Shown: positions 1,226-36,503, counted from the first letter of the stretch. The stretch: DNA of 36,503 nucleotides from a virus (IMGVR_UViG_2718218136_000002:1-36503), one strand, 5' to 3'. Numbers and translations are program-made. The notes: generated by a model from the letters alone, not told the origin.

Positions 1226-1593
1226 AAAAGTAAAAGAATCTGCGATCTCAAAGTTATTGTGTTATTTTTATGTGAGCAGAAGATATTCATCAGAAACGAT
1301 TATGTAAATCATTTTATTTTGCCGACGGCCTGATTGTCGAAAGAAAAGAATACCCCCGTATTCCCTGAATAGATTGACTTTTTTATCCAACCATACTTCA
1401 GCGCACTGCGTTTAAAAAATGCTTCTTTCTTATGTGGAATATCATCATTTCATCATGATGTCTTTGATGAGCGGTGAACACAATACACTTGCGCTGTCTC
1501 TTCAGGATGAATCCCCTGGTCTGGTGCCTGTGGGCTGATGTTGCAGCAGAGCTAAGGTCGCTTAAACGCTACTCAGTATTCACTTTTCAGAGG

Positions 1594-4500
1594 ATGAAAT
1601 TTATGAACAGGACCAGTCCCCATTATTGTCGCCGCTCAGTACTTTCCTTATTGATATCTGCCTTGATATATGCCCCGCCTGGGATGACGGCCTTCACTCC
1701 TGATGTTATTGGTGTGGTAAACGATGAGACTGTAGATGGCAGCCAAAGAGTAGATGAACGAGGTACAACAAATAACACTCATATTATCAACCATGGCCAG
1801 CAGAATGTTCATGGCGGGGTATCTAATGGAAGTCTTATTGAATCGGGTGGATATCAAGATGTAGGAAGTCATAACAATTTTGTGGGGCAGGCTAATAATA
1901 CAACCATTAACGGAGGAAGACAGACAATTCATGACGGGGGCATTTCCACCGGTACGATAATCGACAGTGGCAATCAGGACGTTTATACAGGTGGTATCAG
2001 CAATGGAACGACAATTAAGGGTGGTAATTCACACATAAGTGGGGGGACTGCGAATGGAACCATCATTGATGGTGGAGGGCAGAAAGTAACAACTCAGGGG
2101 CATGTTGATGGTACAACGATAAATAAGTCCGGTTATCAGGACATCACGCAAGGAAGTATTGCAACGAACACAATCATAAATGGTGGACGACAGTATGTTG
2201 AACAGAGCACAGTAGGAACAACCACCATTAAAAATGGCGGTGAGCAAAGAGTATATGAAAGCCATGCGCTGGACACGACGATTGAAGGTGGAACTCAGTC
2301 TCTGAATAATAAGTCAACGGCAAAAATACTCAGATCTATTCTGGTGGTACGCAAATTGTTGATTACACCAGCTCCTCGGATGTTATTGAAGTTTATTCCG
2401 GTGGCGTGCTTGATGTTAGTGGTGGTACGGCAACAAATGTTACCCAGCACGATGGTGCAATTTTAAAAACAAACACTAACGGTACGACGGTGAGCGGTAC
2501 GAATAGTGAAGGTGCATTCTCCATCCACAATCACGTGGCAGACAATGTGTTGCTGGAAAACGGTGGTCATTTAGACATAAACGCATATGGTTCGGCAAAC
2601 AAGACGATTATTAAAGATAAAGGAACAATGTCAGTTTTAACGAATGCTAAAGCTGATGCGACCCGAATAGATAACGGCGGGGTAATGGATGTTACCGGAA
2701 ACGCGACCAATACCATAATCAATGGTGGTACACAGAATATTAATAATCATGGTATTGCCACGGGTACCAATATCAACGGCGGAACGCAAAATATCAAGAG
2801 CGGCGGGAAAGCTGACACGACAATTATATCCTCCGGGAGCCGGCAGGTTGTTGAGAAAGATGGTACGGCAACTGGCAGCAATATTAGCGCCGGAGGCTCG
2901 CTGATTGTCTATACCGGTGGTATTGCACATGGGGTTAACCAGGAGACGGGCAGTGCTTTAGTTGCCAACACGGGCGCAGGGACTGATATTGAAGGATACA
3001 ACAAGCTCTCTCACTTCACTATTACCGGAGGGGAGGCTAATTATGTTGTGCTGGAAAATACCGGCGAACTGACGGTAGTGGCTAAAACCTCGGCGAAAAA
3101 TACTACCGTTGATGCTGGCGGTAAGCTGATTGTCCAGAAGGAGGCTAAAACAGATACCACCAGACTTAATAATGGTGGCGTTCTGGAGGTTCAGGACGGT
3201 GGTGAGGCTAAGCATGTTGAGCAACAATCCGGCGGCGCATTAATTGCTTCCACAACTTCCGGAACCCTTATCGAAGGAACCAACAGTTATGGTGATGCTT
3301 TCTACATCAGGAATTCAGAAGCTAAAAATGTAGTGCTGGAAAACGCTGGCTCATTAACAGTCGTCACTGGTTCCCGGGCAGTTGATACGATTATTAATGC
3401 CAACGGCAAAATGGATGTTTATGGAAAAGATGTTGGCACTGTACTCAATAGTGCTGGCACCCAAACAATATATGCCAGTGCCACTTCTGATAAAGCAAAT
3501 ATCAAAGGTGGCAAGCAAACGGTATATGGATTAGCCACTGAGGCAAATATCGAAAGTGGTGAACAAATTGTTGATGGTGGGTCAACAGAGAAAACACACA
3601 TCAATGGTGGCACGCAAACCGTTCAGAATTATGGTAAGGCAATCAATACCGATATCGTCTCTGGCCTACAACAAATTATGGCAAACGGGACAGCGGAAGG
3701 TTCCATTATTAATGGGTGTTCACAGGTAGTTAATGAGGGCGGTCTGGCTGAAAACTCGGTGCTTAATGACGGCGGCACACTCGATGTGCGGGAGAAAGGC
3801 AGCGCAACGGGGATACAGCAGAGTAGCCAGGACGCTTTGGTTGCAACCACCAGGGCGACGCGGGTCACAGGAACACGCGCGGATGGCGTCGCGTTCAGCA
3901 TCGAGCAGGGTGCGGCGAACAATATCCTGCTGGCAAATGGCGGCGTGTTAACCATGGAGTCAGACACCTCTTCTGACAAAACACAGGTCAATACGGGCGG
4001 ACGGGAGATCGTCAAAACAAAAGCCACTGCGACAGGCACGACGCTCACCGGCGGCGAACAAATCGTCGAGGGGGTGGCGAATGAGACAACGATTAACGAC
4101 GGCGGAATACAAACAGTTTCAGCTAACGGAGAGGCAATAAAAACAAAGATCAATGAAGGCGGTACGCTGACAGTTAACGATAATGGCAAAGCGACAGATA
4201 TCGTCCAGAACAGCGGTGCCGCTCTCCAGACGAGCACGGCTAACGGTATTGAAATCAGCGGTACTCACCAGTACGGCACTTTTTCCATTTCCGGCAATTT
4301 AGCGACCAATATGTTGCTGGAAAATGGCGGTAATTTATTGGTATTAGCAGGTACCGAAGCTCGCGACTCCACGGTTGGCAGCGGTGGAGCCGCCAACGGC
4401 AGTTATCGCAGCAACGGGCTGGGCGGTCACATTGAAACCGGGATGCGATTTACCGATGGTAACTGGAACCTGACGCCGTATGCATCGTTAACGGGGGTTC

Positions 4501-4863
4501 ACCGCTGATAACCCTGAATATCATTTATCCAATGGCATGGAATCGAAATCAGTCGATACCCGCAGTTTATATCGTGAACTGGGTGCAACGCTGAGTTACA
4601 ACATGCGTCTGGGGAACGGTATGGAAGTTGAGCCGTGGCTGAAGGCGGCTGTGCGCAAAGAATTTGTCGATGATAACCGGGTGAAAGTGAATAGTGACGG
4701 TAATTTCGTCAATGATTTGTCGGGCAGACGTGGAATATACCAGGCAGGTATTAAAGCCTCATTCAGCAGTACGTTAAGCGGGCATCTTGGGGTGGGGTAT
4801 AGCCATGGTGCCGGTGTGGAATCCCCGTGGAACGGGGTAGCTGGTGTGAACTGGTCGTTCTGA
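1594..4863 (+). pseudogene. Autotransporter adhesin (AIDA/YpjA-like passenger repeats plus C-terminal beta-domain), disrupted by frame changes
   Basis: Signal-peptide-like start (MKFMNRTSPHYCRRSVLSLLISALIYAPPGMTA). Long arrays of about 19-aa repeats (..G.ATNT.INGG.Q.V..). Three consecutive ORFs in different frames (1474-2466, 2406-4508, 4537-4863). The last ends in the typical autotransporter terminal W-S-F, but the beta-domain is too short. Confidence 0.6.
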
Positions 4864-8569: not shown

Positions 8570-8796
8570 TGGCTGATGCAATGGATCTCGTACAGCAGCG
8601 CGTTGAAGAAGAACGCCAACGCCATATCCGTGCTGCCCGTGCCAAAACGCCGGGCGTGTCCCGCGTGCTTTGCGTTGAGTGTGAAGCGCCAATTCCGCCA
8701 GCACGCCGCCGTGCCATTCCTGGAGTGCAGCTTTGCATTACCTGCCAGGAAATCGCAGAGCTGAAAGGCAAACATTACAACGGAGGTGCTGTATGA
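8569..8796 (+). CDS. TraR/DksA-family C4 zinc-finger protein
   Basis: 75 aa with CVEC...17 aa...CITC (C-x2-C-x17-C-x2-C). Confidence 0.65.
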   Translation: MADAMDLVQQRVEEERQRHIRAARAKTPGVSRVLCVECEAPIPPARRRAIPGVQLCITCQEIAELKGKHYNGGAV

Positions 8797-9650
8797 GCAC
8801 CATCCTGAAATGGGCGGGTAATAAAACCGCCATTATGTCCGAACTGAAAAAATACCTTCCTGCTGGCCCGCGACTGGTTGAACCTTTCGCGGGTTCTTGT
8901 GCTGTGATGATGGCGACGGATTACCCCAGCTATCTGGTTGCGGATATTAATCCTGATTTAATCAACCTCTATAAAAAGATTGCCGCTGATTGCGAAGCGT
9001 TTATATCTCGTGCCAAAGTTTTATTTGAGGAAGCAAACAGTGAGCTGGCTTATTACAACATAAGACAGGAGTTTAATTACTCAACTGAAATTACTGATTT
9101 CATGAAGGCGATATATTTCCTGTATCTCAATCGTCACGGTTACCGTGGTTTATGTCGCTATAACAAGAGCGGGTATTTCAACATTCCCTACGGTAATTAT
9201 AAAAATCCGTATTTCCCTGAAAAAGAAATTCGCGCATTTGCAGAGAAAGCCCAGCGGGCAACGTTTATCTGCGCGAGCTTTGATGAAACGCTGGCGATGC
9301 TGCAGGTGGGGGATGTGGTGTATTGCGATCCGCCGTATGACGGTACGTTTTCCGGCTATCACACTGATGGTTTCACTGAAGATGACCAGTATCACCTGGC
9401 ATCCATTCTTGAACATCGGTCATCAGAAGGACATCCGGTCATTGTTTCTAACAATGACACATCCCTGATTCGTTCGCTGTATCGCAATTTTACTCACCAC
9501 TATATCAAGGCAAAACGCAGCATCGGCGTGTCAGCTGGCGAGGGTAAATCTGCAACAGAAATCATTGCTGTTTCCGGGCCGAGCTGCTGGTTGGGATTTG
9601 ATCCTTCGCGTGGCGTGGATAGTTCTGCCGTGTACGGAGTGTGTGTATGA
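8793..9650 (+). CDS. dam: DNA adenine N6-methyltransferase (Dam family, orphan)
   Basis: Motif [10 protein letters not shown] and motif IV DPPY (VYCDPPYDG). No adjacent restriction endonuclease gene. Confidence 0.9.
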
Positions 9651-12061: not shown

Positions 12062-12153
12062 TTACGCGGGTTAACAATTCGTGCTCTTAATAATACCAGG
12101 CATATCAGGCTGATGAACGTAAAAAAACGTTTTACATCAGTAAGATTATTATA

Positions 12154-12173
12154 TACTGTAAATATAAACAGTG
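12154..12173. promoter_or_regulatory. LexA (SOS) box
   Basis: TACTGTAAATATAAACAGTG = CTGT-N8-ACAG, matching the consensus taCTGTatatatatACAGta. About 40 bp upstream of the 12215 ORF. Confidence 0.65.
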
Positions 12174-12214
12174 GTTATACATACAGTATTGCTTGTGGTG
12201 TCATAGGAGGAAAG

Positions 12215-12403
12215 ATGCAGGACTATTTTTTGGAGTCTTTGAAGCTCCAGCGCATTGATTTTTTTCTTAAGCTTGTAGCGGCTAGTGAGTGTAGTGATGA
12301 AGAGAAGGGGCTGGCCCTGCAGTGGGTTTCTGAACTGACAGATGAACTCATGGCAAAAATCAGAAGCCACGAATACAACCGCTCAATGGATGTCATCAGC
12401 TGA
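12215..12403 (+). CDS. Small hypothetical protein, candidate antirepressor-module partner (Tum-like N-terminal part?)
   Basis: 62 codons with AGGAGG RBS. Immediately downstream of the LexA box and 10 nt upstream of the DinI-like gene. Confidence 0.45.
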   Translation: MQDYFLESLKLQRIDFFLKLVAASECSDEEKGLALQWVSELTDELMAKIRSHEYNRSMDVIS

Positions 12404-12413
12404 GGGGTCTTTT

Positions 12414-12647
12414 ATGCGCATTGAAATAATGATCGATAAAGAGCAGAAGATTAGCCAGTCTACCCTGGACGCCCTTGAATCCGAGCTTTACCGCAATCTG
12501 CGCCCCCTGTATCCCAAAACGGTAATTCGTATCCGCAAAGGTAGCTCTAACGGTGTGGAACTGACTGGGCTGCAACAGGACGAAGAAAGAAAACAAGTGA
12601 TGAAAATTATGCAGAAGGTGTGGGAAGACGACAGCTGGCTGCATTAA
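12414..12647 (+). CDS. DinI-family protein (SOS-associated; Tum C-terminal domain-like)
   Basis: MRIEIMIDKEQKISQSTLDALESELYRNLRPLYPKTVIRIRKGSSNGVELTGLQQDEERKQVMKIMQKVWEDDSWL resembles E. coli DinI (MRIEVTIAK...ISEILQETWESADDW). Confidence 0.75.
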   Translation: MRIEIMIDKEQKISQSTLDALESELYRNLRPLYPKTVIRIRKGSSNGVELTGLQQDEERKQVMKIMQKVWEDDSWLH

Positions 12648-23684: not shown

Positions 23685-24282
23685 TCTGCTGCCACCGGGT
23701 TCAACACCACTGGAGCGCCGACTGGCGCAAACCTGCAGCGGGATTTCTGATCTGCAGGTGCCGCTTCGTGACTTGTGGAATCCGGCAACCTGTCCGGTCA
23801 GTTTCCTGCCTTATCTCGCCTGGGCGTTCTCTGTGGATCGCTGGGACGAGGGCTGGACAGAAAGCGTCAAGCGCCAGGTGGTGAAGGATGCTTTTTATAT
23901 TCATCAGCATAAAGGGACCACCAGTGCCGTGCGGCGGGTGGTGGAGCCGTTCGGATTCCTGATCCGCATTATTGAGTGGTGGCAGACCGGAGAAACACCG
24001 GGCACGTTTCGCCTGGATATCGGCGTGCAGGACCAGGGCATCACTGAAGATACCTATCTGGAACTTGAGCGACTGATAAGCGATGCCAAACCATGTAGCC
24101 GCCACATGATCGGCATGTCCATCAATCTGCAGACCAGCGGCCCGCATTGGGTGGGAGCCGCCAGCTATCTTGGCGAAGAAATCACGATCTATCCGTATAT
24201 CAACGAAACGATTATTTCCGGTGGCACCGCGCATGAAGGCGGGGCGGTCCATGTTATTGACACAATGAGAGTGAATCCATGA
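23677..24282 (+). CDS. I: Baseplate protein (P2 gpI-like)
   Basis: 201 aa. Overlaps the J stop and H start. Confidence 0.88.
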   Translation: MNSLLPPGSTPLERRLAQTCSGISDLQVPLRDLWNPATCPVSFLPYLAWAFSVDRWDEGWTESVKRQVVKDAFYIHQHKGTTSAVRRVVEPFGFLIRIIEWWQTGETPGTFRLDIGVQDQGITEDTYLELERLISDAKPCSRHMIGMSINLQTSGPHWVGAASYLGEEITIYPYINETIISGGTAHEGGAVHVIDTMRVNP

Positions 24283-25958
24283 GCACAAAATTTTATACCC
24301 TGCTGACGGATATTGGCGCGGCGAAACTTGCCAGCGCCGCCGCGCTCGGTGTGCCGCTAAAAATTACCCATATGGCGGTGGGCGATGGCGGTGGAGTATT
24401 GCCAACGCCGGACGCAAAGCAGACGGCACTGGTAAATGAGAAACGCCGGGCTGCGCTGAATATGCTTTATATCGACCCGCAGAACCGCAGCCAGATTATT
24501 GCCGAACAGGTGATCCCTGAAAACGAGGGCGGTTGGTGGATACGTGAAGTGGGCTTGTTTGATGAGTCCGGGGCATTGATTGCCGTGGGCAACTGCCCGG
24601 AAAGCTATAAGCCGCAACTGGCTGAAGGTAGCGGGCGCACTCAGACCGTGCGCATGGTGCTGATTACCAGCAGCACGGACAATATCACCCTGAAAATCGA
24701 CCCTGCTGTAGTGCTGGCAACCCGCAAGTATGTGGATGACAAGGCACTGGAGCTGAAGGTGTACGCGGATGATCAGATGGCAAAACATCTTGCCGCACCG
24801 GACCCGCATTCACAGTACGCGCCAAAAGCCAGCCCGACATTTACCGGAACCCCCAAAGCGCCAACGCCAGCGGCGGGGAATAATACCACGCAGGTTGCGA
24901 CCACTGCGTTTGTACAGGCGGCACTGACGGCCCTTATTAATGGTGCGCCAGCCACGCTGGACACGCTGAAAGAAATAGCCGCAGCCATTAACAATGATCC
25001 GAATTTCAGTACCACCATTAACAATGCGCTGGCACTAAAAGCACCGTTGTCGAGTCCGGCACTCACCGGAACGCCAACAGCCCCCACGGCGGCGCAGTCG
25101 GTCAACAATACACAGATTGCCACTACGGCTTTTGTGAAATCGGCGATTGCAGGAATGGTGGGTTCTGCACCTGCTGCACTGGATACACTGAACGAACTGG
25201 CGGCGGCACTGGGGAATGATCCGAACTTTGCCACGACAATGCTTAATGCGCTGGCAGGTAAACAACCGCTGGACAATACGCTTACCAATTTGAGTGGAAA
25301 GGATGTAGCTGGTCTTCTCAAATACCTTGGTTTGGGAGCATCGGCTTTCGGGCTAAAAAACGTTGTGTATTACACATCGGCTCAGGTCGTGCAGTGGCCT
25401 GTACCAGATATCCTGAAACAAGGGCGCCGTTGCTACGTCGTCGTGATTGGTGGTGGTGCTTCGGGGGCATACGGTAACGAAAAAGCAGGTGGAACGGGTG
25501 GTTCGTCAGGGGGCCGGTCAGAAAAAATCGTAGACCTGACCGGTGTTGATGAGGTGACGGTAACAGTTGGGGCTGGCGGGGCTGCGATAGACTCAAATAA
25601 CTCGGCAGGTAACCCAGGAGCTACTTCATCATTCGGCACTTATTTATCAGCAACAGGAGCGCCAGCTACAAACATATTCTCGAGTCAACCAGGTGGGAAA
25701 GGAATTGGTGGGGATGTGAATATTGCAGGATTTCCAGGAACGCCTGCGGTTGTTTGTTCCACTGATGGAAAAAGGATAGGGGGTAATGGTGGCGGCCCAG
25801 GGGCTGGAGCAGGGAAATATGACACCACTCAGCAGGGAGCTGAGTATGAGCGAAATGCTCGATTCCCCGGCTCAGGCGGGGCTGGTCTTGCGTACTATTC
25901 CGGGTTGACAGGTTCTACAGGACGCGGTGCTGATGGTGCCGTATACATCTACTGGTGA
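24279..25958 (+). CDS. H: Tail fibre protein (P2 gpH-like constant N-terminal part fused to a glycine-rich variable C-terminus lying inside the invertible segment)
   Basis: N-terminus MSTKFYTLLTDIGAAKLA... Repeated ..PALTGTPTAPT..NNTQIATTAFV.. and DTLNELAAALGNDPNFATTMLNALAGKQP motifs typical of side tail fibres. Crossover site inside the gene at 25315-25340. Confidence 0.9.
   Translation: MSTKFYTLLTDIGAAKLASAAALGVPLKITHMAVGDGGGVLPTPDAKQTALVNEKRRAALNMLYIDPQNRSQIIAEQVIPENEGGWWIREVGLFDESGALIAVGNCPESYKPQLAEGSGRTQTVRMVLITSSTDNITLKIDPAVVLATRKYVDDKALELKVYADDQMAKHLAAPDPHSQYAPKASPTFTGTPKAPTPAAGNNTTQVATTAFVQAALTALINGAPATLDTLKEIAAAINNDPNFSTTINNALALKAPLSSPALTGTPTAPTAAQSVNNTQIATTAFVKSAIAGMVGSAPAALDTLNELAAALGNDPNFATTMLNALAGKQPLDNTLTNLSGKDVAGLLKYLGLGASAFGLKNVVYYTSAQVVQWPVPDILKQGRRCYVVVIGGGASGAYGNEKAGGTGGSSGGRSEKIVDLTGVDEVTVTVGAGGAAIDSNNSAGNPGATSSFGTYLSATGAPATNIFSSQPGGKGIGGDVNIAGFPGTPAVVCSTDGKRIGGNGGGPGAGAGKYDTTQQGAEYERNARFPGSGGAGLAYYSGLTGSTGRGADGAVYIYW
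25315..25340. promoter_or_regulatory. Left 26-bp Gin/Pin-type inversion crossover site, inside the tail fibre gene
   Basis: TTCTCAAATACC TT GGTTTGGGAGCA. Half-sites resemble the gix-type half-site TTATCCAAAACC. Its right half-site is the reverse complement of the left half-site at 26897-26908. Confidence 0.6.
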
Positions 25959-25968
25959 GGTAATTATG

Positions 25969-26133
25969 TGGGCACGAATTGAAAATAATATTGTACTGGA
26001 ATTGACCGATATAGACCCCGCCGGTCGTTTCCATCCGTCACTAATTTGGGTTGAATGCCCTGCGGATACTCAGCAGGGCTATATTTACAGCAACGGCGAA
26101 TTTACGCCACCGCCGGAGGTGTTGGCCAGTTGA
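25969..26133 (+). CDS. Small hypothetical protein after the active tail fibre C-terminus (possible fibre chaperone or remnant)
   Basis: 54 codons, MWARIENNIVLELTDIDPAGRFHPSLIWVECPADTQQGYIYSNGEFTPPPEV, with GGTGAGG RBS. No confident family. Confidence 0.35.
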   Translation, partial: WARIENNIVLELTDIDPAGRFHPSLIWVECPADTQQGYIYSNGEFTPPPEVLAS

Positions 26134-26536
26134 TATCCGGTGCGCTGGATGTGTCCACAGCTTCCAGCGCGTCCAGATAATCCAGCCACAAATTATATTG
26201 CGCCAGTTCCTCACCTTTCAGACGACCAATAGCCGCTTTACCAGGCCATTGTTTACTGTTCATATAATCGTTGGCCTGATTAATCAGTTGCTGCTTTTCC
26301 TGTTCGGCTGCAGCAATCTGTTCCTCATGTGTTGGTGGTGGAATTTCAGACCATGCAGGAAAACCATTTTCTCCAGCGATACGGATTTTTCCTTTCGGCG
26401 GTAATCCGGAAAACGCAATATACACTTGCTCATCAACTTCAACAGCATCATCTGGCCATGAGTCAGCTTGAGTGTAATCCTCTTTCATCTCCAGCGGATA
26501 GAAAGAGTTTGTAGTCGCGGAATATATGTAATTCAT
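26102..26536 (-). CDS. Tail fibre assembly protein (Tfa, lambda/e14 TfaE-like), belonging to the alternative (currently silent) fibre orientation
   Basis: 144 aa, MNYIYSATTNSFYP... with C-terminal ..LWLDYLDALEAVDTSSAPDINWP.., the conserved Tfa signature. Confidence 0.85.
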   Translation of the reverse strand: MNYIYSATTNSFYPLEMKEDYTQADSWPDDAVEVDEQVYIAFSGLPPKGKIRIAGENGFPAWSEIPPPTHEEQIAAAEQEKQQLINQANDYMNSKQWPGKAAIGRLKGEELAQYNLWLDYLDALEAVDTSSAPDINWPTPPAVA

Positions 26537-26557
26537 TTTTCACTCCATATAGCTAAA

Positions 26558-26908
26558 TTAACAGCCTAACGCTAAAAATGAAGCGCCGAGGCCAGGAGTA
26601 CTGGCTCTGGATATAAATTTAACCGGGTCGGGACTAAAACCTGCACAGGCAATATAACCAACAGCCCCGCTATCTGGTGTGTAGTCTTGTGAGACCAAAA
26701 CACGCAGACATCTGTTTGGAAATGCAATCGGGAAATGGGTTACTACATCCTGTGCAATACCTGGTGCGCCGATTGAGCCCCACTGAAGAATAAAACCTGA
26801 TGGTAATTTTTGATATCCAGTACCTGAAACAGAAAGCGTGAAGCTACCCATATCAGGTATCTGATTCGCCCCTGTCCCTACATCCCGTTTTGCCGCTTCT
26901 CCCAAACC
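26558..26908 (-). other. Alternative tail fibre C-terminal coding segment (Hv-prime), promoterless and start-less in the current orientation
   Basis: Open frame continuous from the crossover site. It reads ..[14 protein letters not shown].. in the same phase as the constant H segment ..KYLGLGAS.., so inversion would fuse it in frame. Confidence 0.65.
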
Positions 26909-26922
26909 AACGTTTAAGAAAA
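26897..26922. promoter_or_regulatory. Right 26-bp Gin/Pin-type inversion crossover site
   Basis: TTCTCCCAAACC AA CGTTTAAGAAAA. Inverted relative to 25315-25340. 56 bp upstream of the invertase start. Confidence 0.6.
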
Positions 26923-26977
26923 TGCAGAGGTAACAGCTAACTGGCATCATCTCCGGTTTTTATTCAGGGGATTGATC

Positions 26978-27544
26978 ATGCTAATTGGCTATGTACGCGT
27001 GTCAACAAATGACCAGAACACCGATTTGCAACGTAATGCACTGAACTGCGCGGGATGTGAGCTGATTTTTGAGGACAAAATCAGTGGCACTAAGTCCGAC
27101 AGACCGGGGCTTAAAAAACTGCTCAGGACACTATCGGCAGGTGACACACTGGTTGTCTGGAAGCTGGACAGGTTGGGGCGCAGTATGCGGCATCTTGTTA
27201 CGCTGATAGAAGAGTTGCGCCAGCGCGGCGTGAATTTCCGAAGCCTGACTGACAGTATTGATACCAGCACCCCAATGGGCCGTTTCTTTTTTCATGCCAT
27301 GGGTGCCCTGGCTGAAATGGAACGCGAACTGATAGTTGAACGTACCAGGGCGGGGATTGCTGCAGCTCGTGCTAAAGGCAGAGTAGGTGGACGCCGTCCT
27401 AAGTTGACCACTGAACAGTGGGCACAGATTGGACGTTTACTCGAGGCCGGAGAATCAAGACAGCGTATTACACTGATTTTTGATGTAGGCGTTTCTACCA
27501 TTTATAGAAAATTTCCGGCAAATAAGAGCAATGAATCCCCCTGA
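26978..27544 (+). CDS. Serine DNA invertase (Gin/Pin/Hin/Cin family)
   Basis: MLIGYVRVSTNDQNTDLQRNAL... with the catalytic Ser in the YVRVST context, ..VWKLDRLGRSMRHL.., and a C-terminal HTH. ATG at 26978. Confidence 0.92.
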   Translation: MLIGYVRVSTNDQNTDLQRNALNCAGCELIFEDKISGTKSDRPGLKKLLRTLSAGDTLVVWKLDRLGRSMRHLVTLIEELRQRGVNFRSLTDSIDTSTPMGRFFFHAMGALAEMERELIVERTRAGIAAARAKGRVGGRRPKLTTEQWAQIGRLLEAGESRQRITLIFDVGVSTIYRKFPANKSNESP

Positions 27545-27592
27545 ATCAGCATAATTTTGATTATCCCTGCAAGCAGACAAATACCGTCATTT

Positions 27593-27610
27593 TGTGTGAA
27601 TAACGGTACA
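27593..27610. promoter_or_regulatory. TGT-N12-ACA dyad, candidate Ogr-type late promoter element (FI promoter)
   Basis: TGTgtgaataacggtACA, about 75 bp upstream of the FI start. Resembles the dyad at 15883-15900. Confidence 0.5.
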
Positions 27611-27686
27611 ACTGCGCTTAGCTGTTTGTCAGGCACAATCACTTCAACATAGGGCGAAGCCTAATCCAATCAGGAGGTTCGCCACT

Positions 27687-28859
27687 ATGGCTCAGGATTA
27701 CCACCACGGGGTGCGCGTTGTTGAAGTCAACGAAGGCACCCGATCTATTACCACGGTGAGCACCGCCATCGTGGGTATGGTCTGCACGGGCGATGATGCC
27801 GATGCAAAAATGTTTCCTCTTAATAAACCCGTGCTGATCACTGATGTGCTGACTGCCAGCGGTAAAGCGGGTGAGTCAGGTACTCTGGCCCGTTCGCTGG
27901 ATGCCATCGCTGACCAGGCAAAACCCGTGACCATTGTTGTGCGTGTGCCACAGGGTGAAACGGAAGACGAAACCACGACCAATATCATCGGCGCAGTGAC
28001 TGCTGAAGGTAAAAAAACAGGTATGAAAGCCCTGTTATCTGCCCAGTCACAGCTCGGCGTTAAACCGCGCATTCTCGGCGTGCCAGGCCACGACACCAAG
28101 GCGGTAGCTACTGAGTTGCTGAGCGTGGCGCAAAGCCTGCGTGGATTTGCTTACCTGTCAGCGTATGGCTGCAAGACAGTGCAGGAGGCGATCACTTACC
28201 GCGAAAACTTCAGCCAGCGCGAAGGGATGCTGATCTGGCCTGACTTTACTGGCTGGGACACGGTGCTGAATGCCGAAGCAACGGCATATGCCACCGCCCG
28301 TGCGCTTGGTCTGCGCGCCAAAATTGACGAGCAGACCGGATGGCACAAAAGCCTGTCCAACGTGGGCGTGAACGGTGTCACCGGAATTTCTGCAGATGTG
28401 TTCTGGGATCTGCAGGACCCGGCAACCGATGCAGGTCTGCTGAACCAGAACGACGTCACCACGCTTGTGCGTAAAGACGGTTTCCGCTTCTGGGGTTCCC
28501 GCTGCCTGAGTGATGACCCGCTCTTTGCCTTCGAAAACTACACCCGCACGGCGCAGGTGCTGATGGACACGATGGCAGAAGCACACATGTGGGCGGTGGA
28601 TAAACCGCTTAACCCGTCGCTGGCCCGCGACATTATCGAAGGTATCCGCGCCAAAATGCGCAGCCTGGTCAGTCAGGGCTATCTCATTGGTGGTGATTGC
28701 TGGCTGGATGAGTCGGTGAACGACAAAGACACGCTGAAAGCCGGAAAACTCACCATCGACTACGACTACACGCCAGTGCCGCCACTTGAAAACCTGATGC
28801 TGCGTCAGCGCATCACCGATCAGTACCTGGTGAATTTCGCCAGCCAGGTCAGCGCGTAA
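27687..28859 (+). CDS. FI: Tail sheath protein (P2 gpFI-like)
   Basis: 390 aa, [32 protein letters not shown].. typical contractile sheath N-terminus. Confidence 0.93.
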
Positions 28860-35442: not shown

Positions 35443-35488
35443 TTGGTGGAGCTGGCGGGAGTTGAACCCGCGTCCGAAATTCCTACAT
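35443..35488. repeat. Proximal att core (within the tmRNA 3-prime end), direct repeat of 5023-5068
   Basis: Identical 46-bp sequence. Identity breaks exactly at both ends. Confidence 0.85.
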
Positions 35489-35806
35489 CCTCGGTACTAC
35501 ATGCTTAGTCAGTCTTTACATTCGCTTGCCAGCTGCGGACGGACACGCCACTAACAAACTAGCCTGATTAAGTTTTAACGCTTCAACCCCAGGCAGGGCT
35601 TCCACGCGATCTCTTTTGGGTTTGACCTCTCTTGATCCCCGTCCTAAGAGCGGAGGCTAGGGAGAGAGGGCTCTAAGCAGGTTATTAAGCTGCTAAAGCG
35701 TAGTTTTCGTCGTTTGCGACTATTTTTTGCGGCTTTTTACGAGGCCAACCGCCCCTCGGCATGCACCTTGGGTTTCGCAAATCCCGTCGAATCCAGAATC
35801 AGCCCC
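35444..35806 (-). ncRNA. ssrA: tmRNA (transfer-messenger RNA, SsrA)
   Basis: Reverse complement starts GGGGCTGATTCTGGATTCGACGGG and ends ...CCCGCCAGCTCCACCA. Contains the tag reading frame GCAAACGACGAAAACTACGCTTTAGCAGCTTAA (ANDENYALAA). Length 363 nt. Confidence 0.95.
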
Positions 35807-36020: not shown

Positions 36021-36503
36021 TTAACGGTGGGCGTTTTTCATGATACGTGCTTTATCCACCTGCCATTCGCGTTCTTTGATATCTGAACGTTTATCGTGCT
36101 GTTTTTTACCTTTGGCGACGCCGATTTTCACTTTGCACCAGGCATTTTTCCAGTACAGGGAGAGCGCCACTACGGTATAGCCTTCTCGATTGACGCGACC
36201 GTACAATGAGTCCAGTTCGCGTTGGTTGAGAAGTAACTTGCGGGTACGGGTAGGATCGCACACCACATGCGTGGAGGCCACGGCCATTGGCGTGATGTTA
36301 GCGCCAAACAGAAATGCCTCTCCGTCACGCAGAAGGACGTAGCTGTCGCTGATATTGGCTTTTCCTGCGCGCAGGGATTTAACCTCCCAGCCTTGCAGGG
36401 CAAGTCCCGCTTCGAACTCTTCTTCGATAAAGTATTCGTGACGGGCGCGCTTGTTAAGCGCGATGGTCGCTGAACCAGGTTTATGTGCTTTTTTCTTCGT
36501 CAT
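36021..36503 (-). CDS. smpB: SsrA-binding protein SmpB
   Basis: 160 aa, [72 protein letters not shown]... Start codon at the last bases of the window. Confidence 0.95.

Follow-up and report, generated by a model that had tools for sequence, protein, structure and literature searches.

A probable Gin/Cin/Pin-type inversion switch for the tail-fibre tip of a P2-like prophage, with a glycine-rich tip cassette

The late tail operon of this E. coli prophage carries at its end a 1.58-kb segment that is, with high probability, a Gin/Cin/Pin-type site-specific inversion switch for the tail-fibre tip and its matching chaperone. The analysis covered the whole 36,503-nucleotide stretch of viral DNA (hereafter the window), and positions are counted from its first letter. 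The switch is of a well-known kind, common and routinely annotated in E. coli P2-like prophages; its sole unusual part is the glycine-rich tip cassette with its predicted 55-residue mini-chaperone. A switch of the Mu G, P1 C and e14 P type had been proposed in an earlier, sequence-only reading, and this assignment holds, as all structural elements are intact and both orientations occur in natural populations with breakpoints on the sites. In systems of this type, a constant fibre N-terminus lies outside the invertible segment, which carries two opposed in-phase C-termini, each with a dedicated assembly protein downstream. The same layout was found here, with one of the two assembly proteins atypical (55 aa, single domain).

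The late gene order (gpV, W, J, I and H, then sheath, tube, gpU, gpD, gpA and 186-type CI/CII) and the domain matches (Tail_P2_I, Phage_sheath_1, Phage_GPA, Phage_P2_GpU, Phage_GPD, integrase and CI/CII) agree with the P2-family assignment made previously. In members of this family (Peduoviridae), the order V-W-J-I-H ... FI-FII-E-T-U-D is accompanied by the replication protein gpA, an integrase and an activator of Ogr type. The matching E. coli flank carries an annotated ogr/Delta-like gene, the prophage is inserted beside ssrA, and a TGT-N12-ACA motif lies at 27593-27610. The features of the switch are as follows.

24279-25958, plus strand: fibre gene H in its present orientation, full ORF
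24279..25328, plus strand: constant part of H, codons 1-350 (Pfam Phage_tail_fib N-terminal domain, 1.2e-64)
25315-25340: left crossover site, TTCTCAAATACC-TT-GGTTTGGGAGCA, core TT at 25327-25328, inside H
25329..25958, plus strand: variable tip now fused to H, 209 residues and stop (Pfam Gly_rich_2, 3.9e-09)
25966..26133, plus strand: small ORF, 55 codons, GAGG 6-7 nt upstream of the ATG
26102-26536, minus strand: Tfa-type tail-fibre assembly chaperone (Pfam Caudo_TAP, 1.6e-39; PHROG 188, 3e-65)
26558..26908, minus strand: alternative tip, 116 residues and stop (Pfam Gp53-like_C, 4.6e-15)
26897-26922: right crossover site, TTCTCCCAAACC-AA-CGTTTAAGAAAA, core AA at 26909-26910
26978-27544, plus strand: Gin/Cin/Pin-family serine DNA invertase, 188 aa, intact
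27000..27062, inside the invertase gene: candidate Fis-dependent recombinational enhancer, two Fis-consensus 15-mers

Crossover sites, invertase and candidate enhancer

Din systems use two 26-bp, imperfectly symmetric inverted sites, each with 12-bp half-sites and the same non-palindromic 2-bp core. Both 26-bp sites proposed for the window were confirmed exactly in position and sequence, and they are inverted relative to each other. The left site lies inside H, as had been claimed, and codes for ..L-K-Y-L-G-L-G-A.. within it; the core dinucleotides are indeed complementary (TT versus AA on the top strand), non-palindromic and identical when the sites are read in inverted orientation. In a repeat search, the sites formed the top inverted repeat (31 nt, 77%), and the right site matched the reverse complement of the left site at 20/26 positions. 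An exact 12-nt run, CTCCCAAACCAA, is common to both and comprises 10 nt of half-site plus the 2-nt core. The right site is upstream of the invertase as stated, at a distance of 55 bp from the ATG rather than 56, and an upstream TTG lies at 49 bp.

Scored against the Din (Hin/Gin) consensus TTCTCNNAAACCNNGGTTTNNGAGAA at 20 positions, each of the two sites reached 18/20, whereas the next-best 26-mer in the 36.5-kb window scored 13 and the maximum in 200 shuffles was 16. These scores, together with the location of the sites exactly at homology breakpoints, rule out a chance inverted repeat. A looser site pattern recovered just these two sites in the window and just gixL and gixR in a 6.2-kb Mu stretch (L008). 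We also rejected a third site or a multi-inversion Min/shufflon-like system, as found in one EPEC P2-like prophage, since no other 26-mer of the window scored 14 or more. The left inner half-site ends in GCA, where the consensus has GAA, and reads GGTTTGGGAGCA here versus GGTTTGGGAGAA in P2-like relatives. The right outer half-site shows two departures from the consensus and is identical in relatives known in both orientations; the right site as a whole is identical and identically placed in loci L001, L002 and L005.

Din invertases are small serine recombinases (~190 aa): the serine nucleophile sits in a resolvase catalytic domain at the N-terminus, and an HTH follows at the C-terminus. The intact Gin/Pin-family invertase that had been reported is a full-length ORF matching Gin from end to end. 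It showed Pfam matches to Resolvase (2.1e-52) and HTH_7 (4e-14) and a match to PHROG 125 DNA invertase (5e-99); the closest solved structure was Mu Gin 3UJ3 (E 5e-91, 306 bits, residues 1-184), to which the catalytic serine motif YVRVSTNDQ was aligned. Residues Q150, R153 and L154 align with Q151, R154 and L155 in Hin's DNA-binding domain (1HCR), which contact Fis and are uniquely conserved in Fis-dependent invertases (PMC3798978).

One Fis-consensus 15-mer lies at 27000-27014 on the minus strand (6/7) and the other at 27048-27062 (7/7); their centres, 27007 and 27055, are 48 bp apart, and the proximal one is ~97 bp from the core of the right site. Din enhancers lie within the invertase gene, in its 5' part, ~100 bp away from the closer site, and Johnson et al. 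in 1987 (cited in PMC3798978) reportedly placed the Fis sites of the enhancer ~48 bp apart. The P1 cin enhancer is annotated at nt 19-90 of that gene, and the candidate falls inside its homologous stretch here; the blocks TCAACAAATGA and GGATGTGA are conserved across the window, Mu gin and P1 cin. The frequency of identical codons in this stretch was no higher than in the rest of the invertase gene, so the case for an enhancer is one of homology, spacing and consensus only. We infer that 27000..27062 may function as an enhancer and that the switch would depend on Fis.

In the proposed mechanism, the invertase would bind both 26-bp sites, with host Fis probably bound to the enhancer in the first ~90 nt of the invertase gene. 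Cleavage at the 2-bp cores (25327-28 and 26909-10), strand rotation and religation would then invert the 1,580 bp between the cores.

Fibre gene H, its two tips and their assembly proteins

The constant part of H, common to both fibre forms, ends at the crossover core, and H is collinear with E. coli and Klebsiella P2-like relatives at 95-99% identity up to 25338-25346. The 1.58-kb segment carries two opposed tip cassettes, as had been noted, arranged as convergent tip-plus-chaperone units. The tips are asymmetric as stated, with lengths of 209 and 116 residues, when counting starts at the codon that follows the core, instead of ~206 and ~115. In-silico inversion fused H in frame to the minus-strand tip and gave a 466-aa protein, H', so the claim that this alternative C-terminus is in phase was upheld. 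H' is identical at 454/466 residues to the annotated H of L005, an E. coli relative in the flipped state, and the alternative tip differs from the expressed H tip of L005 and L007 at one position (115/116 identical).

The AlphaFold2 (AF2) model of the glycine-rich tip had a pLDDT of 91.7, and its best PDB match was the fibre of cyanophage Pam3 (7ypx_A, E 4e-7, TMq 0.72, 20% sequence identity). The expressed tip is thus modelled as a TNF-like plus glycine-rich domain resembling Pam3 gp24, and homologues of this tip attach to various fibre N-termini at an LGLG motif. The tip protein gave no match against species-representative genomes; exact-protein look-ups of H and of the invertase found no record, and an NCBIfam search with the glycine-rich tip, the small ORF, Tfa and the alternative tip returned no match for any of them.

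A short plus-strand ORF beside the glycine-rich tip had been reported with 54 codons; it is present, with 55. It follows the glycine-rich tip in the window and in L003, L004, L009 and L010, has no Pfam or PHROG match either, and is without a CDS annotation in both RefSeq records checked. We considered that it might be spurious or a truncated Tfa remnant; a spurious ORF is ruled out by pN/pS values of 0.09-0.19 (versus L003, L004 and L009) and by a conserved short family of 22 clusters, all of 50-84 aa. Its AF2 model (pLDDT 90.5) had only one credible PDB match, the Pam3 chaperone gp25 (7ypx_a, TMq 0.74, 32% identity over 56 columns), and corresponds to the N-terminal client-binding beta-sandwich of gp25 (residues 1-55) alone. 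The two-domain chaperone architecture of beta-sandwich and helical trimerisation domain is thus absent from this single-domain ORF. A trimerisation domain is thought to be essential in Tfa-type chaperones. Because only the N-terminal domain is present, the 55-aa protein would work like a full Tfa/gp25-type chaperone without being one. The model suggests that it is likely a stand-alone beta-sandwich serving as the cognate mini-chaperone of the glycine-rich tip, and it may have descended long ago from a two-domain chaperone.

The Tfa-type chaperone gene previously placed on the minus strand was confirmed by its Caudo_TAP and PHROG 188 matches. It serves the alternative tip and, in the present orientation, is antisense to the late transcript and hence silent. 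In the sequenced orientation, the 350-codon constant part of H would carry the 209-residue TNF-like/glycine-rich tip, with the 55-aa protein co-transcribed; after inversion, H would carry the 116-residue gp53-like tip, with the classical two-domain Tfa co-transcribed. Both tips probably have a receptor-binding role, and with two alternative H tips, a lysogen population would release particles with two receptor specificities.

Orientations among relatives and exchange of the tip cassette

The window itself contains one orientation. Compared with L005, its flanks are collinear and 26109-26913 is inverted, with breakpoints on the sites. The whole segment is likewise inverted between L007 and L006, and L012 and L003, which have the glycine-rich/gp53-like architecture of the window, share flanks at 99.3-99.9% identity with a 1,566-bp segment inverted at 99.7%. 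In a census of 5,426 complete genomes of E. coli, 845 have the gp53-like tip beside the invertase and 228 have it fused to H. Both orientations were therefore found across strains, not within one culture of the window's strain. The exact junction of H with the glycine-rich tip occurred in 0/5,426 of these genomes, and the exact 26-nt inner-junction pattern was absent from the genome, viral and metagenome contigs searched; with this junction absent from the complete genomes and the proteins unrecorded, flipping of this particular allele combination was not seen. We nevertheless infer that the switch is probably active in this strain.

The single orientation raises the alternative of a frozen switch, in which the parts are intact but no inversion takes place in this strain and the glycine-rich fibre alone is made, for example because of the GCA variant, an unexpressed invertase or a defective enhancer. 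The departure of the left inner half-site from that of P2-like relatives points in this direction, as does a promoter and terminator scan of 25200-27750, which gave no more matches than shuffles and so no backing for an invertase promoter. Moreover, in L009 and L010 (~10-kb loci) the glycine-rich cassette is accompanied by one site only and no invertase was called, which indicates that such cassettes do become fixed. However, the GCA variant affects a single position, on the half-site's outer edge, and both sites equal in score those of relatives known in both orientations. The invertase is of full length and keeps its catalytic and Fis-contact residues, and the silent cassette is intact, its tip being nearly identical to expressed copies. 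We therefore regard a frozen switch as unlikely.

It is far less probable still that the orientations seen among strains arose from rare homologous recombination at short repeats, or from horizontal cassette replacement, instead of the invertase. The cassettes are clearly mosaic: whereas the flanks match P2-like prophages, unrelated prophage types hold copies with 89-92% identity to the glycine-rich cassette (25327 to ~26215-26308). Against this explanation, the exact repeat shared by the sites is 12 nt, far below what efficient RecA-dependent recombination uses, and three unrelated contexts show a break of homology at the core dinucleotide; for L009 and L010, both unrelated elements, homology begins at 25327 and 25316, respectively. 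Each of the seven P2-like loci examined has a cognate invertase beside the site, and inversion has been shown by sequencing, at the population level, in the P2-like prophages of EPEC E2348/69 (PMC4272514). These results favour the invertase-driven switch.

A further, tentative reading, to which we give slightly less than even weight, is that the glycine-rich tip, fused directly to a P2-type shaft and paired with a 55-residue single-domain chaperone, is an uncharacterised enterobacterial receptor-binding module (Pam3 gp24 / S16 gp38-like), one that passes among P2-like, CPS-53-like and e14/Mu-baseplate-like elements through exchange precisely at the crossover core. As textbook bet-hedging for phage host range, the switch is not conceptually new. 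Its crossover cores mark the exact module boundaries of fibre-tip exchange between unrelated prophages, which is of value for annotation and engineering, and the silent-cassette ORFs that RefSeq lists as separate 'gp53-like' or 'glycine-rich domain' proteins are in fact alternative H C-termini. Together with its minimal partner, the glycine-rich tip could serve as a compact, portable module for receptor binding, and the 55-aa partner could show if a trimerisation domain is needed by a Tfa-type chaperone.

Comparison with known systems

The nearest relatives are P2-like prophages with an invertible H tip; those compared were from strains L73 and 23-AB02114, Escherichia phage 500465-1, Cartapus, Klebsiella phage KP12 and the EPEC E2348/69 prophages. 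They share the order I, H, cassette, cassette', invertase and sheath, with the same two sites at the same positions and flanks of 95-99% identity. L012 and L003 also have a glycine-rich tip and small ORF opposite Tfa and a gp53-like tip, in both orientations, but the glycine-rich tip allele of L012 is just 102/215 identical to that of the window, whose closest copies lie in remnants of non-P2 prophages (P0001, 92%; P0002, 90%).

The Mu G segment resembles the present switch in several respects. Gin is the closest solved relative of the invertase, which in both cases lies downstream on the strand of the fibre gene; the 26-bp sites are built alike around a non-palindromic 2-bp core, the left one lies within the fibre gene, and 54 bp separate the end of gixR from gin, compared with 55 bp here. 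Both have convergent tip-plus-chaperone cassettes (Sv-U / U'-S'v in Mu). By contrast, the G segment is ~3 kb rather than 1.58 kb, the constant part is ~170 rather than 350 codons, the cores are TC/GA (NC_000929) rather than TT/AA, and both Mu chaperones are two-domain Tfa proteins. Mu is also a transposable phage, whereas the present one is P2-like.

The P segment of e14 with PinE and the C segment of P1 with Cin have the same invertase family and mechanism, and RefSeq names some neighbouring invertases pinE. The P1 cin enhancer has its homologous stretch here, with the two conserved blocks 48 bp apart, but cin lies on the other side of its segment, with cixL at the cin 3' end; e14 differs as a remnant of lambdoid type whose StfP constant part is short. 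Salmonella Hin with the H segment is a Fis/enhancer-dependent invertase acting on 26-bp sites, and its Fis-contact residues are conserved here; however, it flips a promoter and so switches flagellin expression, with no exchange of coding C-termini.

Pam3 (7YPX) offers the structural counterpart of the cassette: gp24 has a TNF-like plus glycine-rich (stacked GRM) module, gp25 has a beta-sandwich, and the fibre gene precedes the chaperone gene. In gp25 (162 residues in total), residues 1-55 form the N-terminal beta-sandwich that binds the gp24 module (PMC9608196). Its C-terminal helical trimerising domain is missing here and in all 22 family clusters, the Pam3 fibre lies outside any inversion switch, and identity is low for both the tip and the chaperone domain (20% and 32%).

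The P2-family prophage and its probably invertible tail-fibre segment

As the sequence-only reading had proposed, the window contains a P2-family prophage; the host is E. coli. Ahead of the tail genes it carries an integrase, 186-type CI/CII, a Dam-type methylase, gpA, portal and terminase, and the late order after portal/terminase is V-W-J-I-H, followed by sheath, tube, gpU and gpD. The genes ssrA and smpB lie directly beyond the ogr end, in a flank with 99.7% identity to E. coli chromosomes, which places the element at an ssrA-adjacent integration hotspot. A 96-aa ORF without a family match precedes the DinI-like gene (both within 12113-12647). Two overlapping ORFs at 1474-4508 (330 and 700 aa), located just outside the prophage at its integrase end and downstream of the DUF5508 gene at 1-690, each have repeats of the AIDA autotransporter stalk, suggesting a single adhesin gene broken by a frameshift near 2406-2466.

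Features of the window (window positions)
8733-9650: D12-class (Dam-type) adenine methyltransferase, upstream of gpA
12342-12647: DinI-like protein, between gpA and the portal gene
24279-25958: tail-fibre gene H, 559 aa; P2-type tail-collar N-terminal domain and C-terminal Gly_rich_2
25327-28: left-site core TT, from the site sequence
25966-26133: small ORF, 55 codons, directly after H
26102-26536, minus: Caudo_TAP (Tfa) gene, by domain match
minus, reading frame extending through the right site: Gp53-like_C tip
26909-10: right-site core AA, from the site sequence
26978-27544: invertase, 188 aa; Resolvase and HTH_7 domains
27000-14, minus: proximal Fis-like 15-mer, 6/7 consensus positions
27048-62: distal Fis-like 15-mer, 7/7 consensus positions
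35444-35806, minus: ssrA (tmRNA, tag ANDENYALAA)
36021-36503, minus: smpB

The two 26-bp inverted sites are present exactly at 25315-25340 and 26897-26922, and were the top inverted repeat in a search of 24200-27700. When the left site is reverse-complemented, it agrees with the right site at 20 of 26 positions, and the two share an exact 12-nt run, CTCCCAAACCAA. Scored against the palindromic Din consensus TTCTCNNAAACCNNGGTTTNNGAGAA, each site fits 18 of the 20 specified positions; the runner-up 26-mer in the whole window scored 13, and shuffles (n = 200) reached at most 16. With a looser site pattern, the window yielded just these two sites, and a 6.2-kb stretch of phage Mu (NC_000929) just gixL and gixR. 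The cores TT and AA are complementary, as claimed, and also non-palindromic, like TC and GA in Mu.

Among solved structures the invertase is closest to Mu Gin (3UJ3, E 5e-91); the alignment spans residues 1-184 and takes in the catalytic serine motif, and the assignment to the Gin/Pin family holds. The right site does lie upstream of this gene, but 55 bp rather than 56 bp before the ATG (Mu gixR lies 54 bp before gin). Similarly, the short plus-strand ORF and the two unequal tips exist, but with lengths of 55 codons, not 54, and 209 and 116 residues, not about 206 and 115. In-silico inversion of 25329-26908 joined H codon 350 to the minus-strand tip in frame, giving a 466-aa protein and bearing out the predicted phase. 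In the silent orientation, the frame of the alternative tip crosses the right site to an ATG at 26950, forming a 130-aa ORF (26558-26950, minus). Its RefSeq equivalents are free-standing "gp53-like domain-containing" or "glycine-rich domain-containing" proteins; these are alternative H C-termini, not separate genes.

The stretch that separates the invertase stop from the sheath gene contains a TGT-N12-ACA motif (TGTGTGAATAACGGTACA) at 27593-27610. This is the binding pattern of Ogr/Delta-type late activators at P2-family late promoters, and its position fits insertion of the invertase and segment between the V and F late operons.

Both orientations among related prophages

Because the window has one orientation only, relatives were compared. 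The annotated H genes of E. coli NRZ14408 and 160-11H1 are exactly 1,401 nt each, and their products are identical to the predicted inverted product at 454 and 450 of 466 positions, respectively, with tips matching the window's alternative tip at 115 of 116. Window and NRZ14408 are collinear to 25346 and again from 26896, with 26109-26913 reversed; the breakpoints thus coincide with the crossover sites. The whole segment of 160-11H1 is the same DNA as that of another P2-like locus (L006), in the opposite orientation.

E. coli L73 and 23-AB02114 provide the most direct evidence for inversion. They carry one and the same P2-like prophage (flanks 99.3-99.9% identical; identical protein accessions for invertase, Tfa and sheath), in which a segment of 1,566 bp, 99.7% identical between the two, runs in opposite directions. 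Its architecture is that of the window, with a Gly-rich tip and small ORF facing Tfa and a gp53-like tip. In a set of 5,426 complete E. coli genomes, 845 have the gp53-like tip beside the invertase and 228 have it fused to the window-type H constant part.

A candidate Fis-dependent enhancer

The 5' part of the invertase gene likely contains a Fis-dependent enhancer, judging from homology, spacing and fit to the Fis consensus. The Cin enhancer is annotated in the P1 record at nt 19-90 of cin, and the homologous window stretch is 26996-27067, in which the blocks TCAACAAATGA and GGATGTGA are kept in the window gene, Mu gin and P1 cin. Both blocks fall within 15-mers fitting the classical Fis consensus GNNYRNNWNNYRNNC; these lie 48 bp apart centre to centre, the proximal centre being 97 bp from the right-site core. 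This spacing agrees with the Hin geometry of "~100 bp" and a 65-bp enhancer (PMC3798978). Hin Q151, R154 and L155 in the DNA-binding domain, uniquely conserved in Fis-dependent invertases (PMC3798978), are all conserved here as Q150, R153 and L154. However, identical-codon frequency was not raised in the enhancer-homologous stretch, and we therefore grade the expected enhancer as likely but unproven.

A sigma-70-like match, TTGACA-16-TAGCAT (10/12; 27005-26978, minus), is directed into the silent cassette and overlaps the proximal Fis-like site; such matches were no more numerous in that region than in shuffles.

The Gly-rich tip, its small gene and known systems

The exact H::Gly-rich junction occurred in 0 of 5,426 complete E. 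coli genomes, and the cassette had no match in phage records, species-representative genomes, or viral or metagenome contigs. Protein relatives, few in number (63) and all of at most 361 aa, are silent ORFs or are fused at an LGLG motif to several unrelated fibre N-termini. The closest copies occur in two non-P2 prophage remnants, the Mu/e14-like baseplate remnant L009 (92% amino-acid identity) and the CPS-53-like remnant L010 next to intS (90%). In window positions, DNA homology begins for L009 at the core dinucleotide itself (25327) and for L010 at the second base of the 26-bp site (25316), and the inner half-site GGTTTGGGAGCA moves together with the cassette; the crossover site thus doubles as an inter-element module boundary. 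Gene calling gave no invertase in the fetched loci (L009 5022 and 6877; L010 5326), where the cassette has just one recognisable crossover site at its border; these look like fossilised switches. In L009 a different tip occupies the expressed fused position.

Modelled with AlphaFold2 (pLDDT 91.7), the tip matches gp24, the fibre of cyanophage Pam3 (7ypx_A, E 4e-7, TMq 0.72), as well as tail-tip proteins of Bxb1; there is also a weak match to the glycine-rich domains of ALK/LTK. Pam3's TNF-like/glycine-rich module is its proposed receptor-binding end (PMC9608196).

In all loci examined, the small ORF comes after the Gly-rich tip; it shows pN/pS of 0.09-0.19 in the part outside the tfa overlap. 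Its 55-aa product had no match in Pfam, PHROG or NCBIfam; the family, from E. coli, Xenorhabdus and Leclercia, comprises 22 clusters, all of 50-84 aa, with 12 invariant residues. The RefSeq records of 23-AB02114 and L73 have no CDS for it, and in both the interval that separates H (or the glycine-rich ORF) from tfa is left empty; this conserved 52-55-aa gene lies at 25966-26133 in the window, 4023-4181 in the 23-AB02114 locus and about 3520-3690 in the L73 locus. The sole credible PDB match of its model (pLDDT 90.5) was the Pam3 chaperone gp25 (7ypx_a), with a TMq of 0.74 and 56 aligned columns at 32% identity. What aligns is gp25's N-terminal beta-sandwich, residues Met1-Ala55, the part that binds the Pam3 fibre at its TNF-like/glycine-rich junction; nothing in the 55-aa protein corresponds to the helical trimerisation domain (Pro64-Phe162). 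From these predicted structures we infer a single-domain mini-chaperone.

The sites, invertase, phase and both orientations among relatives support the proposed inversion switch of the Mu G/P1 C/e14 P type, which is presumably active in the window's own strain. What modest interest remains attaches to the cassette of Gly-rich tip and mini-chaperone, and to the crossover core as a module boundary precise to the base. The switch itself is of a familiar type that already has near equivalents in RefSeq, and P2-like prophages give experimental precedent; Goldberg et al. found coexisting orientations by sequencing in P2-like prophages of EPEC E2348/69 and verified e14 inversion by PCR (PMC4272514).
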